From Longimicrobiales bacterium (GTDB taxonomy: Bacteria; Gemmatimonadota; Gemmatimonadetes; Longimicrobiales; Gaopeijiaceae), in NCBI GenBank assembly GCA_965238005.1, contig OZ250165.1, positions 608,001 through 672,000 on the forward strand: a stretch of DNA of 64,000 nucleotides. The letters run 5' to 3'. This document shows, in pieces, positions 43,189 to 61,483 of this stretch (the first letter of the stretch is position 1; every line of letters begins with the position of its first letter). The notes under the pieces are model-generated. The model was not told where the DNA came from and searched no databases. It worked only from the letters and a program-made list of their open reading frames with translations. A program made the translations under genes and the position numbers.

Positions 43189-44131
43189 AGGAGCCGCTAG
43201 TCGAACGCCCGAGGATCCCTTGCGCGAGATCAGGCAATCGGTTGTCGCAATCGGCACGCTGCCGGATTCGCCATCCCGCCCGAGCGGTCAGCTCTACCAT
43301 GATGGGCGGCTCGTAGACTTCGATGTCAGAGGGACGGGCTTCATCTATACGCACACGCCGATCGAGTTCGCGGAGGGCAAGTCCGATCCGGATCCAAAGA
43401 CGGGAGCAGTCTACTACTGGGCGACGATGTGGATCGTGACCTGCAAACATTGCGTACACGACACCCCAGTAGTCGCGGTCCGGATGGACACGAACGCTGG
43501 CACGCGAGTCTATACGATCCGCGCATCCAAGTGGACAATTCACCCGGAGGCGGACGTGGCCGTCACTCCCTTCGGGCTGGACAGCGATGTCGAACCCGTT
43601 CCCAACGAGGCTGCGGCAGATGCGTTTGGAGCGTTGGTGATTTCCAGCGTTGACCGGGAAGTCACCGCGACCAGGGGACAAATCAAGAGCATGGGCTTCT
43701 GGGAGTCCACGCCTGTGTCGATGAGCGGGTTTCCCGCCGGCATGATTGAAGGCGGCAACAAGAATTACCCGGTCGTTCGCGCCGGGACGATCGCTCAGCT
43801 GCAAGGCTACCTGGATAGCGACCCAGAACACCGGCAGTTTCTCGTTGACGGATCGGTCTTCGCGGGCAACAGCGGAGGACCCATAGTGGTTCGGAAGGGC
43901 ACGATGAATAGCGAAAATCGCGCGTTGTCGCATACCGTCTTGATCGGCATGGTGTCCAAGGCTGTTCAAGTGGAAACCGTGCGTCACGATGAATCTTTCA
44001 GCGGTGTCATGGAGAACGCTGATCTCGTGAATGCCGTGACCGTAGACTCGATCAACGACACGATTCGCAGCTACTACGCTTCGAAGAGAATCTTGGACAA
44101 GAGCATCTTGACTCGACCCCGGCCTGGTTGA
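43178..44131 (+). CDS. Trypsin-like serine protease, no evident signal peptide
   Basis: GTGF; VTCKHC; DVAV; GNSGGP triad motifs. Confidence 0.88.
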   Translation: MTNRGAASRTPEDPLREIRQSVVAIGTLPDSPSRPSGQLYHDGRLVDFDVRGTGFIYTHTPIEFAEGKSDPDPKTGAVYYWATMWIVTCKHCVHDTPVVAVRMDTNAGTRVYTIRASKWTIHPEADVAVTPFGLDSDVEPVPNEAAADAFGALVISSVDREVTATRGQIKSMGFWESTPVSMSGFPAGMIEGGNKNYPVVRAGTIAQLQGYLDSDPEHRQFLVDGSVFAGNSGGPIVVRKGTMNSENRALSHTVLIGMVSKAVQVETVRHDESFSGVMENADLVNAVTVDSINDTIRSYYASKRILDKSILTRPRPG

Positions 44132-44602
44132 GGGCTAGGGCCCAGAGGCCAGACCGACAGCCCCATCCGCCGCTGTCGGCGGCGCCACGGCGGGGCGCCA
44201 CGCCGACATCCAACCTCATGAGCCAGCCGCTCACTGCTCCGTTACCAAGGCTCCCTATGACATCAAGTCCGAACTGTACGAAACTGTAGTTCACGGGTGG
44301 TTCACCGACGGGCGTCCGGTTACGGGCCCCGGGCAGATCGACCCGAAGCGAAGGGAACGGGTCGTGTTCGCGGGTCCGAACTTTCACGCCCGGCGGACGA
44401 ATTGGTCCCTGCGGGCCCTACTTGCTACACTCCGGATCCGGGCGGTTGTCGTACAGCGACGCCCGTCTCGCCTAAGCGCGGAAATGGCCGAGCTCGCACC
44501 CCGGAGCGGGCGCTCGGTTGAATCACCTATCGACCGATCGTCCGTGAGGTCCCTTGATATCGGAGCGGTGCGGCGAGGCTTGGAAGCTCGTGGGAGAAAG
44601 AG

Positions 44603-44650
44603 TGCCAGGGGTGGAGTTGAACCAGCGACCTCACGCTTATCAGGCGTGCG
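44603..44650 (-). tRNA. 3' half of tRNA-Ile(GAT), degenerate; likely att remnant
   Basis: Minus strand CGCACGCCTGATAAGCGTGAGGTCGCTGGTTCAACTCCAC: anticodon arm and T arm; no D arm, no CCA. Confidence 0.75.
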
Positions 44651-44782
44651 CCGGAGGATATGAATTACGGCAAGAAGTCTTCTAAGTTTAACTGGGACTG
44701 CATGATCTGCCGCTCTTGCCGTTAGACCATATCTGATTCCACCGTACCGAAATAGCGGGAAAACGGCATCAAACAGCGGGAA
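44649..44782. repeat. att-arm-like element, family 2 copy A
   Basis: Similar to 61085-61217 at constant offset; internal IR ACGGCAAGA/TCTTGCCGT. Confidence 0.8.
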
Positions 44783-44833
44783 TCCGAGCCTGGTGGCATG
44801 AGCGCACGTGTCGACGTCGATGCAGGTGAATTT

Positions 44834-44869
44834 CCTTCAATGAGGCCGGGGCAGATCAGCCCCGGAAAT
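44834..44869 (-). CRISPR. Solitary type I-G (I-U)-like CRISPR repeat; no array or cas genes
   Basis: Minus strand ATTTCCGGGGCTGATCTGCCCCGGCCTCATTGAAGG, 36 nt; CCGGGGC/GCCCCGG stem; CATTGAAG 3' handle. Confidence 0.7.
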
Positions 44870-45232
44870 CTACTGGAATGCCGCACATCGACGCGGAGCG
44901 GAGAAGCCGCACGGAAGGTGAGTTCGGCCATTGGTATTCTCTCCTTATCATGTAGGTCACTGGGAGCATCTGCGGGTCGGGGCAAGCCGTGGGACACCAT
45001 CCCAGTTGTTCTCCTCCTTTCTTCGGAGTCGGGACGGCAAACCAAACGGGCCCACGAAGGTATTGGGAGCATCGCCCAAGGCTCGGTCGGGCGCGTGGCG
45101 ATCCGGCGGCGACGCGTCCGTTCAGACTGATTCGTACAGCCTTCGCCGTGATCGTGGAGGTCGGCATCGCCCTCGCAACTACTGGAGCGCCCGAGACCGC
45201 CGCCTTATAGTCGATCCCTCGGACTCGCGCCA

Positions 45233-45649
45233 TCACGGGGTCTGCCAGCGCCGCAGCGACGATACGCCCCCCGCTCTCGAGGCGCGACTCGCGTATCGTT
45301 CGTCCGCCGTCACAAACACACCGCCGAGGCCGAGCGCCACGGCATGGTACGCCACGTCGTAGAATGCGACTCCGTACGTCACAGACAGAGACACAGCCCG
45401 GGTTCTCCACCTCGAGTCCAGCCGTGCCTCCGTCAGGCCGAAATCGGCCAACGATGCGAGCAGCTCGTCAGCGTCATCGGGAAACCGCCTCGCCAGCGTG
45501 TTGCCCATCTCGTAGATCCAGAGCTGGGGAACGACCAGCTCGATGGCTCCCGCCACGGCTTCGTCACGCAACAATAGCGCCGCGTCCTGCTCGTCATTGC
45601 CTGGAAGAACCCACTTGAGAAGGACCGATGCGTCGGGAGTCACGATCAC
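45233..45649 (-). CDS. vapC: PIN-domain VapC toxin
   Basis: DASVLLKW, YEMGN, FYDVAY, VTAD. Confidence 0.9.
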   Translation of the reverse strand: MIVTPDASVLLKWVLPGNDEQDAALLLRDEAVAGAIELVVPQLWIYEMGNTLARRFPDDADELLASLADFGLTEARLDSRWRTRAVSLSVTYGVAFYDVAYHAVALGLGGVFVTADERYASRASRAGGVSSLRRWQTP

Positions 45650-45795
45650 GACAGCCGTTGCTCCCGCTCCTCGCGTATCCATCGGACAATTTGGTCGGTC
45701 TCGACCGTAGGCAGCCGCGCGCGCAGGGCGTCCATTCGGGCGGAGGCGTCCCGACGTGCGGCAACGCCTGCCCACTCCCGGATCGCAGCGTTTAT
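45646..45795 (-). pseudogene. VapB-like antitoxin, C-terminal part
   Basis: INAAIREW...IVRWIREER; GTGA overlap with vapC; 5' end missing. Confidence 0.6.
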
Positions 45796-45868
45796 GGCAC
45801 GTCACGAGAGAGGGGCGTGCTCAGCAGTCGGAGCGGTGGGGATGAAGGACTAGATTCTGAAGGTGGCC

Positions 45869-48050
45869 CTACAGCTCGTGAGGTGCGGAGATCACGTTCG
45901 GCAGGGAGTAGGTTAAGTCGTCTGGCAACGGGGACCCCGCATAAGCCGGGTTGAGCGCACCTTGAGCCCAATCGCAGAGAAGCAGCCCGCCACAATCCTC
46001 CAAACCCGTCAACGTCCGGAGTCTGAAGAACCAGACACCAGCGACATGCCTCATTCGCGGATCTCGGAACACGCCGTTCCCGAGGCGCCTTTCTTCTGCG
46101 ATCGACCCCCACCCTCTTGGATCCGGACGTGCGACCACAATAGGATCGCCAAAGAGAGCGGCCCATGCATCATCTTCTACGCCCAGGAAGGCGTCGCAAT
46201 TTAGCGCCCCCGGTTTCTCTGGACAGTAGATTGGCAAAGAGAGCGGGTCCAGAGAGAAAGGGACGTGATGGCCCAGAAGCCGAGGGAAAAGAAGGCGACC
46301 GAAGGTCGTGAGAAGGTACCCGAGCGGTGGAGCGCACAGCATAAGACGGAGGTGGTGCTGCGCCTGCTGCGGGGGGAGGATCTGGTGGAGGTCAGCCGCG
46401 AGGTGCAGGTCTCACCACCGGAGTTGGAGGAATGGCGGCGGGTGTTTCTGGAGACCGGTCAGCAGGGGCTGAGGCGCCGGGGCCGGGACCCTGGAGAACG
46501 AGAGCTGACCCGGACCCAGGCGAAGCTGGGAGAGTTGACGATGCGACTGGAGCTTGCGAGAGAGCTCCTGGAAAAAAGGGGGTACGGGGACGAGCTACGG
46601 ACGCTCTTGAAGCGTGGACGCGAGTGAGTCCGGGGACCGGGCGGCCCTACCCTCTGACGATGATCTGCGAGGCCTGGCGGGTGGGGCGCTCGACGGTCTA
46701 TGCGGCCCGGGATCGAGAAGAGAGCGAGGGGCCGGCAGAGCCGAAGAAACGAGGACCGAAGACGAAGCTGAGCGACGAGGAGTTGGTAGAGGAGATCCGA
46801 CAGGTGCTGAAGCAGAGCGACTTCCTGGGCGAGGGTCATCGAAAGGTGAGGGCGCGCCTGAGGCCGAAGGGGATCCATGTGGGCAAGAACCGCGTGCTCA
46901 GGCTGATGCGGGAGAATGGGCTGCTGGCCCCTGTACGACGCGGGAAGCATCCGCATGGGGACCGGAGCCACAGTGGCCGGATCACGACGGACGTGCCGAA
47001 CGAGCTGTGGGGCACGGACGCGACGCGGTTCTACACGAAGGAGGATGGGTGGTGCTGGTTTTTCGTGGCGGTGGATCACTGCGTCACGGACGTGGTGGGC
47101 TGGCACGTGGCGAAGAAGGGCGATCGGTGGGCAGCGCTCGAGCCGATCCGCCAGGGCGTACGGACCCACATGGACGACTACGCGCCCAAGATCGCTCTGG
47201 GGCTCGGCCTACGGCACGACTGGGGACCGCAGTACACGGCGCATCAGTTCCAGGGGGAGCTGGCCTGGCTCGGGATCCGCTCGACGGCCTCGTACGTGGG
47301 AGAGCCGGAGTGCAACGGCGTCGCAGAGCGCTTCATGCGGACGCTGAAGGAGGAGTGCTTGTACCTCCACGACTTCAAGAGTCTCGAGGAGGCCAGACAG
47401 GAGATCGACGCGCTTATCGAACGCTACAACCGCGGGTGGCTCCTAGAGCGGCATGGGTATCGGACCCCGGCCCAGGTCCGTCAGGCGCTCACCCTGAAGG
47501 CGGCTTGATTAGGCCGCCGACTTGTCCAGCAAACCGGAACCGACACTATGATGAGCCCCGGCTCTGCCTCAGGGAGCTGCGCGGCAGCCTCTTCAATCGC
47601 TCCTCGCCAAAGGGTCGATCCTGGCAACGGTTCCGACGTGACTCCAGGGCCCTCCCCCAAGTACCTGGGATCCGCCCCAGGCCGGGATCCACTGTAGCCG
47701 ACAAGACCCGGCGTGATCTCGTTCCCATCGCGGGCGAATGGGAATCTATCTCGTTGATGCTTCACTTCGACGTAAATCCACAGGCCGTTGAATAGGACTC
47801 GGGCGTCACATCGGCGCTGCCAACGGCCGATCGCATGCGGTTCAACAGCGGTCGCCTTGCTGCTCACTCGCGCTATCGCAAACAGCTCTGGTATCGATCC
47901 CGGCTCACCCTGTAAGACACGGCTGACATACGCGGCGCGCACCGCTTGGGCGGACAGGAGCCGACCTAGCCTCCCGCAATCTGAAATGACTCGCGAAGCT
48001 TCTGCGTCTCCCAAGCGGACTCGTAGCTCAACCTCAGTTTCGCTGGTCAT
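45869..48050 (-). pseudogene. PD-(D/E)XK-like protein apparently split by the IS3 element
   Basis: N part CDARV....WIYVEVK...IEEAAAQLP (47549-48050); C part on the same strand beyond the IS (45869-46201). Confidence 0.5.
46202..47548 (+). mobile_element. IS3-family element, orfA (46268-46627) and orfB (to 47508)
   Basis: HTH orfA; DDE orfB (WGTD, LRHDWG.QY, NGVAERF.RTLK); slippery AAAAAAG at 46572; imperfect terminal IRs; no clear target duplication. Confidence 0.9.
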
Positions 48051-61084: not shown

Positions 61085-61217
61085 CGCCAGAGGCCTGAAT
61101 CACGGCAGGAGATCACGTAAGTTCATACAGGACTGCACGATCTGCCACTCTTGCCGTTGGCGCGCATCTGATCCGACCGTCCCGAAATACCGGGAAAACC
61201 GTGTAGTATGGCGGGAA
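61085..61217. repeat. att-arm-like element, family 2 copy B
   Basis: Matches 44649-44782 at offset about 16435. Confidence 0.8.
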
Positions 61218-61483
61218 GCAGAGGCATAGCCGGGGGGGGGGCGTGTGGTGCACGCAGGGCCGTCTGATGGTGACGGCGTTCCCGTGTCCGGAAAACCGCA
61301 ACCCTACAGCCCCCACTCGTACGATCGGGCCGGAGACGACTGGTACGGTTGTCGAGCTAGAGACTGGGCGATTCGACCTCCACAGGCATCAAGCGAGACC
61401 GCAAGTCTTCTGACGTGAGGGCCGGCAGCTGTTGCGCACCAGAGCAACCGTGCAAGTTCCTCGATGCACCTGACCCCGGTGTA

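Follow-up and report, generated by a model that had tools for sequence, protein, structure and literature searches.

Solitary repeat units (SRUs), including the RNA anti-CRISPRs (Racrs) RacrIF1 and RacrIC1, were described as full-length CRISPR repeats that are >90% identical to an array repeat, are solitary within 100 bp, have no nearby cas genes and reside on mobile DNA (PMC10651486). About 90% of the SRU hosts carry CRISPR-Cas, with a matching subtype in 83% (PMC10651486). I-G solitary repeats are already catalogued: the supplementary table of the same report holds 50 occurrences of "I-G", two per row in the 16 rows examined, which gives approximately 25 I-G candidates. The tested Racrs named in the available part of that report belong to I-C, I-E, I-F and V-A, and not to I-G. 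No published I-G Racr was met in our literature search, although one may nonetheless be in print. A second group, the regulatory mini-arrays and crRNA-like RNAs (crlRNAs), lies within or next to cas loci and has a PAM-adjacent target, as far as described in PMC10120712 and 10.1101/2024.12.27.630466. Few I-G loci contain mini-arrays (0.04 of 235; Shmakov et al., Table 1, PMC10120712). The type I-G repeats of arrays are processed by Csb2, whose substrate has 36 nt, a 7-bp stem and an 8-nt handle (PMC9638904).

Here we analysed a 64,000-nt stretch of DNA from a Longimicrobiales bacterium (contig OZ250165.1, positions 608,001 to 672,000), referred to as the window, in which a single repeat of type I-G lies close to an attachment (att) arm and a vapBC module (Table 1). 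This repeat shows the sequence and location features by which SRUs were described. Judged on sequence, it also agrees with the SRUFinder definition of an intergenic unit that is solitary within 100 bp and has identity and coverage of at least 90% to a known repeat. Unlike the SRUs and Racrs described in PMC10651486, however, it has no predicted consensus promoter and no acr-like gene recognised beside it, no cognate Cas was found in its host, it is not on a phage or plasmid, and it is not conserved among sibling elements. With the mini-arrays and crlRNAs it shares a stand-alone repeat near a toxin-antitoxin pair, whereas it neither adjoins a cas locus nor has a PAM-adjacent target. On this analysis, it would be Racr-like only in potential, and we would file it neither as a Racr nor as a crlRNA. 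We hold it most likely to be a relic of a deleted I-G array, probably the trailer-end repeat, that is likely an inert passenger at the end of a decaying element. In other words, the repeat is real and ordinary, and probably inert. If it is a relic, its importance is small: decay of cas loci, too, yields solitary repeats that would pass as Racr candidates by sequence, and such hits need checks of host and context.

Table 1 Features around the solitary repeat (positions in the window)
Feature	Position	Strand	Remarks
tRNA-Ile 3′ half, foreign or decayed allele	~44600..44651	-	putative attR/attP-like geometry
att-arm block of a multi-copy integrative element family	44661..44788		16 copies in the host genome; putative arm function
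Element-end sequence, not a unique spacer	44789..44825	-	also beside the same att arm in G222
8 nt between repeat and element-end homology	44826..44833	-	homology with G222 and a contig of run X11 ends at 44825
Type I-G CRISPR repeat, single	44834..44869	-	7-bp stem, 6-nt loop, 8-nt handle
Orphan segment, probable gene stump joined to the repeat	44870..45065	-	two Shine-Dalgarno-like ATG starts, 45000 and 44931
REP-like short repeated element	45084..45125		elsewhere in genome, genus and sequencing runs
vapC, PIN domain, open frame	45233..45649	-	Pfam PF01850, E 1e-8
vapB remnant	45646..45801	-	lacks about the first 27 of 77 codons, the ribosome-binding site and the upstream region

Sequence, type and solitary state of the repeat

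The preliminary description, made from the letters alone, had reported a 36-nt unit with a perfect 7-bp stem, solitary and type I-G/I-U-like; the stem, the solitary state and type I-G held. The coordinates and sequence of the unit were verified exactly on the minus strand, and its layout is 4 nt, 7-bp stem, 6-nt loop, 4 nt and 8-nt handle, which is that of a type I-G repeat (36 nt, 7-bp stem, 4-nt linker, 8-nt handle). The folding energy of the repeat is -16.6 kcal/mol, and the base-pair probability of the stem is at least 0.99 in a 151-nt context. The final base of the handle is G, where C is usual. In length, stem and handle the unit equals the repeat processed by Csb2 (PMC9638904) and CRISPR-DR16, with the cut predicted 4 nt past the stem; it differs from the Csb2-processed repeat in lying outside an array, in its last base, and in having a host in which no Csb2 was found.

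The nearest match was the final repeat of the I-G array in genome G267, with 34/36 identity (94%), that is 2 changes, as against 3 changes (33/36) from the consensus of the same array. The G267 repeat has the same 6-nt loop, and there is a compensatory stem swap between the two. Identity to the repeat of genome G007 was 29/36. Both the G267 and G007 loci were typed as I-G by their cas genes; the match to real I-G repeats that the preliminary description had asked for is therefore at hand, with near-identity to repeats of arrays beside cas3g, cas8g, csb1, csb2 and cas4-1. The type I-G assignment of the window repeat is secure. No exact match to the repeat was found in GTDB contigs and JGI metagenomes.

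A degenerate I-G pattern matched 34 of 301 genomes. Since the reversed control pattern matched none of the 301 while the I-G pattern did, the window repeat is beyond chance. In the family, the pattern was present in 33 of 300 genomes, in 23 of them with at least 3 copies (i.e., I-G systems in about 1/13 of the family genomes) and in 10 with one copy.

The changed final base was examined among the array repeats. Such a change was present in 2 of the 11 last-detected repeats and in 2 of the 360 internal repeats, the trailer count being small and the "last repeat" being the last one found with the pattern, not necessarily the trailer itself. The trailer repeat of G267 has the same final-base change as the window repeat. 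The changed last base could be trailer-like or, alternatively, a deletion joint, and either reading leads to the end of an array.

Neither a second nor a partial repeat was found above background in the 100 nt on either side, and among 2000 random windows, 21% and 95% reached the best local scores of the two flanks. A candidate degenerate repeat on the upstream side, at -47, was rejected, as it was not above background. Compared with an active array, which has at least two repeats with spacers, the window holds one repeat only.

We compared contigs from 7 distinct sequencing runs, out of 13 listed, with the window; no RNA run was among the 13, which has no bearing on expression. Single contigs spanned the repeat and both flanks in run X1 (44757-45384, 628 nt, 0 differences), run X2 (43500-45571, 28 differences, 2 gaps) and run X3 (44790-45240, 451 nt, 0 differences), and a contig of run X4 covered 44820-45223 with 1 difference. 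Because the spanning contigs come from two studies, one of them possibly the genome's own source, assembly collapse is excluded. An artefact, be it an array collapsed in the assembly or a chance hairpin, thus has a negligible probability in our view. The one point in its favour is the score of the sole Rfam match in 24 kb, CRISPR-DR16 (RF01330), which at 34.4 bits (E 8.3e-5) falls just below the gathering score of 35. Against it stand the contigs of X1, X2 and X3, which refute it, as well as the identity to a real I-G repeat and the empty control pattern.

Since repeat-spacer-repeat contigs with similar repeats occurred in 5 of the 7 runs (X2, X3, X4, X5 and X6), I-G arrays are present in the same communities.

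Host genome and candidate functions

The preliminary description had seen no cas gene in the window, and the same was found genome-wide. The host genome (G000), one contig of 4.84 Mb with 95.85% completeness, gave no matches to the Cas1, Cas7, Cas3-HD, Csb2, Cas2 and RAMP profiles, which were positive in control genomes or in G007/G267, and no tblastn match below E 0.49 to 11 I-G and III-B proteins of G007. The negative result for Csb1 comes from tblastn with the G007 proteins, and that for Csb2 from the profile with its positive controls; the search covered these families, and Cas9 and Cas12 have no bearing on an I-G repeat. A host I-G locus (csb1/csb2/cas8g), which had been suggested as a check, was not found.

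A Racr or crRNA-like regulator, which the preliminary description had preferred, gained no positive support, in that no cognate Cas, consensus promoter, conserved context, target or acr-like gene was found. In the case of a Racr, the transcript of the orphan segment and the repeat would, in an I-G host, be cut and held by Csb2, and Cas7g would coat the RNA upstream and so be titrated from crRNAs. We regard this as unlikely, and so too the corresponding picture for the element, where the attachment end of an integrative element would carry an I-G RNA decoy. After transfer, RNA read through the repeat and capped by Csb2 would sequester Cas7g and so protect the element from the I-G systems of the family. 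The hairpin and cut-site geometry do match the Csb2 substrate (PMC9638904), and the inhibitor of RacrIF1 is the product upstream of the cut (PMC10651486), with which a leaderless upstream RNA would fit here. The repeat also lies inside a mobile-element end, and targets exist in the community, given the I-G repeats in 33/300 family genomes and the similar-repeat arrays in 5/7 runs. On the other hand, a cognate CRISPR-Cas subtype, which is typical but not absolute for the hosts of Racrs, was not found in the host, against the approximately 90% and 83% of SRU hosts given in PMC10651486. If I-G inhibition were true, it would extend Racrs to a subtype whose processing enzyme stays on the 3′ hairpin and in which no subunit except Cas7 holds the handle, and also to integrative elements, the window then holding a functional I-G Racr whose carrier is not a phage.

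A crRNA-like regulator of the CreR/CreA type is very improbable. Csb2 would give a handle with a guide, and Cascade would repress a nearby promoter, for example that of vapBC. The toxin-antitoxin pair lies ~365 nt upstream of the repeat, and solitary-repeat crlRNAs are described that repress defence promoters; the known ones, however, are in or beside cas loci (10.1101/2024.12.27.630466; PMC10120712), which the window copy is not. The window also has no second repeat, no Cascade genes were found, and all but the first 8 nt of the would-be guide belong to the element end. With an I-G PAM that we take to be TTN, no TTN-adjacent seed match of at least 9 was found in the host genome for the downstream guide, while the best TTN-adjacent seed for the upstream guide was 10, against 8-13 in shuffles. 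Under the same assumed PAM, neither flank has a seed match beyond shuffles, and a guide with a PAM-adjacent promoter seed match was not found in the host genome.

No protospacer was found for the flanks in IMG/VR, INPHARED and PLSDB. The flank 20-mers gave 0 matches in IMG/VR, the upstream 28-mer gave 0 in metagenomes, no match was found in INPHARED, and PLSDB gave 4 weak records, one of which is a 40-place repeat match. A stem between the two flanks was rejected, with p 0.11-0.42 for the whole fold at three flank lengths; for the flank-flank duplex only, p was 0.008-0.08, and equally good pairing occurs between neighbouring real spacers in 35% of 184 cases.

When the host genome was scanned with the repeat, a single further copy turned up within 8 mismatches (G000:4812480); three places matched at 11-12 mismatches, and these have no handle. 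The other copy is a second lone I-G repeat (G000:C1:4812480-4812515, plus strand; L033:8481-8516), and a degenerate repeat with a handle-like 12-mer end (9/12) is located exactly 37 nt upstream of it, which is a two-repeat mini-array layout. The site is common to G001 (L051) and G094 (L059), with ~97% identity over 1.1-1.5 kb, and both have a stem-breaking change. No cas was found in G001 and G094, and no target above chance was found for the site. By shape it is a better crRNA-like candidate than the window copy, yet it looks decayed. The host genome also contains an 8-repeat orphan array of another type (G000:C1:2831015-2831560, plus strand; L034) with a degenerate 3′ end and an IS-like element against its 5′ end; no cas-like ORF was recognised within 15 kb of this array, and no cas was found genome-wide.

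Upstream region and element end

The repeat had been placed downstream of vapBC on the same strand, which stands for an open vapC, but vapB is 5′-truncated and the module has lost its native upstream region. Homology of vapB to most relatives stops at 45801. For the orphan segment, between this module and the repeat, neither 300 family genomes nor 250 order genomes gave a homologue, and matches were limited to 20-44 nt (best E 2e-4, in the 250 order genomes). The frame from its two ATG starts continues through the repeat. Matches to the 44-aa upstream frame were all at E of at least 1, and the ORF overlapping the repeat had no family match. The segment is likely a gene stump joined to the repeat.

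Two motifs mark the leaders of I-G arrays: 10/10 have a TTGACA-like box at -111 to -124, and 9/10 have another motif at -54 to -56. Both were absent at the window repeat, where the scores were 5/8 and 6/10 at wrong positions, and the copy thus has no leader of the kind found upstream of the first repeat of an active array. The following observations also speak against a Racr. No sigma-70-like consensus promoter was detected in 44300-46300, which is a weak test with only 0.3 expected, and the upstream region of vapB, as noted, is deleted. No stand-alone small acr-like gene was found upstream of the repeat, as the frame there passes through the repeat, and the collections searched gave no relatives of its peptide.

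At the other side, the att arm that the preliminary description had recognised beside a tRNA half does end 45 nt from the repeat, but the tRNA-Ile half differs from the host allele (88% identity over 43 nt), and the host genome has a single tRNA-Ile(GAT), located 2.2 Mb away. From the attR/attP-like geometry, the repeat would lie on the element side. Neither an adjoining integrase nor a partner att was found at this element end, and the element looks stranded, which again argues against a Racr. Copies of the att arm are present at 44661-44788 and 61096-61223 of the window and at 14 more places in the host genome; their left flanks are varied, with tRNA-Ile halves in only some copies.

In genome G222, a 172-nt match with 89% identity covers 44654-44825. 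As this homology starts 8 nt past the repeat, the would-be downstream spacer is mostly element-end DNA. At the G222 element end an IS remnant comes next, with no repeat, and because the break there is the IS remnant, G222 cannot show whether the ancestor had the repeat.

The full repeat was present at 1 of the 16 att arms in the host genome. Matches to the window vapC were found in 27 of 300 family genomes, at 33 places, and the full repeat was present at none of the 29 vapC loci of relatives that were examined. The proposed check whether related elements keep a single repeat in this context came out negative, and none of the sibling elements examined has retained the context, a further point against a Racr. 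vapC directly abuts arm-like sequence at 2 loci by BLAST and at ~8 by eye. Homologous loci with full arrays at this place, which the preliminary description had named as counter-evidence, were not found in relatives either.

The proximity of the att arm, 45 nt away, and the integration into arrays suggested for SRUs (PMC10651486) would agree with a repeat through which the element, or cargo on it, enters I-G arrays by recombination, or which marks a past event of this kind. We judge such a recombination handle to be very improbable. A search for the handle-plus-arm pattern in GTDB contigs gave 38 matches, of which 0 had an in-register repeat stem, and matches to the arm, apart from the window copy, came from six arm loci and from none of the array loci compared. 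Moreover, 36 bp is a short substrate for homologous recombination.

In the closest vapBC relative, G082 (90%), an exact 12-nt match to the I-G handle occurs where homology to the window ends (L096:2060-2115), inside the loop of an 11-bp hairpin. About 0.01 such 12-mers would be expected in the 29 loci by our estimate. This 12-mer, which complicates a simple account of the repeat, may be due to chance or may reflect an old link of vapBC with an I-G array; the latter would agree with a relic. The hairpin was rejected as a conserved element, as it had no relatives in 300 genomes and the strong matches were to the coding sequence beyond.

Decay of type I-G loci in the family and probable origin of the repeat

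Decay was compared in the 10 family genomes with one strict I-G match. Two of these 10 (G033 and G229) had arrays at a looser cut-off. In G160, a truncated cas4/1 is fused to one intact I-G repeat, and a csb2 remnant lies upstream (L092:9314-11957). In G311 and G072, degenerate mini-arrays abut stumps of cas3 and csb2. A second, degenerate repeat was present in G154, the single matches of G001 and G094 are the second site of the host genome, and G132 and G207 have lone repeats with no cas in the 3-kb loci. With G007 as a control, csb1 was not found in G001, G094, G154, G207, G132 and G160. The G160 locus, in a complete genome, is a clear decay intermediate, and a contig with the same downstream flank was found in run X6.

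The remnants in G160, G311 and G072 resemble the window copy in having lone or few I-G repeats with no leader, joined to gene stumps. They differ from it in that the window copy has no adjacent cas stump, so its parent locus is not directly readable; since a second repeat, a recognisable spacer and a relative's full array here are also missing, that locus can only be deduced.

An array remnant, which the preliminary description had mentioned as the alternative, fits the evidence best. It is favoured because no cas was found in a near-complete genome and both leader motifs are missing, because the last base is trailer-like, because decay intermediates occur in the family, and because the context is unconserved at the arms and at the vapC loci, with an upstream flank that has no homologue. 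The neighbours are also broken (vapB is truncated, the tRNA half is decayed and no partner tRNA is nearby), and the host genome has two more CRISPR traces without cas, both of which favour the same origin. The tail of an I-G array would have been part of, or taken up by, an ancestor of the element end, and the rest of the locus, with its other repeats, its leader and its cas genes, would have been lost by deletion. A deletion or illegitimate join would then have fused the repeat to an unrelated gene stump, and, with no Csb2, a transcript through the repeat would stay unprocessed. As the stem is perfect, decay has not touched the repeat, which suggests a recent loss of the array and would also fit selection.

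The intact I-G loci showed some further features. In G007, 188 repeats lie beside cas3g, cas8g1, csb1, csb2 and cas4g/cas1g; this array runs opposite to the I-G operon, with its trailer next to cas2 (L031:15100-15500, L032) and its leader towards a Cmr-like (RAMP) operon. In the G267 locus, ~2.5 kb of cargo separates csb2 from cas4/1 (L091:14200-16700), as in the locus described in PMC9638904, and includes a PIN-like ORF as judged by eye. Finally, the viral contig IMGVR_UViG_3300005607_000002 (L165:1185-1300) carries an I-G-like repeat, a short spacer and a partial second repeat, followed by a hairpin with a T run, and on this arrangement it would be a stronger mini-array or Racr candidate than the window copy.
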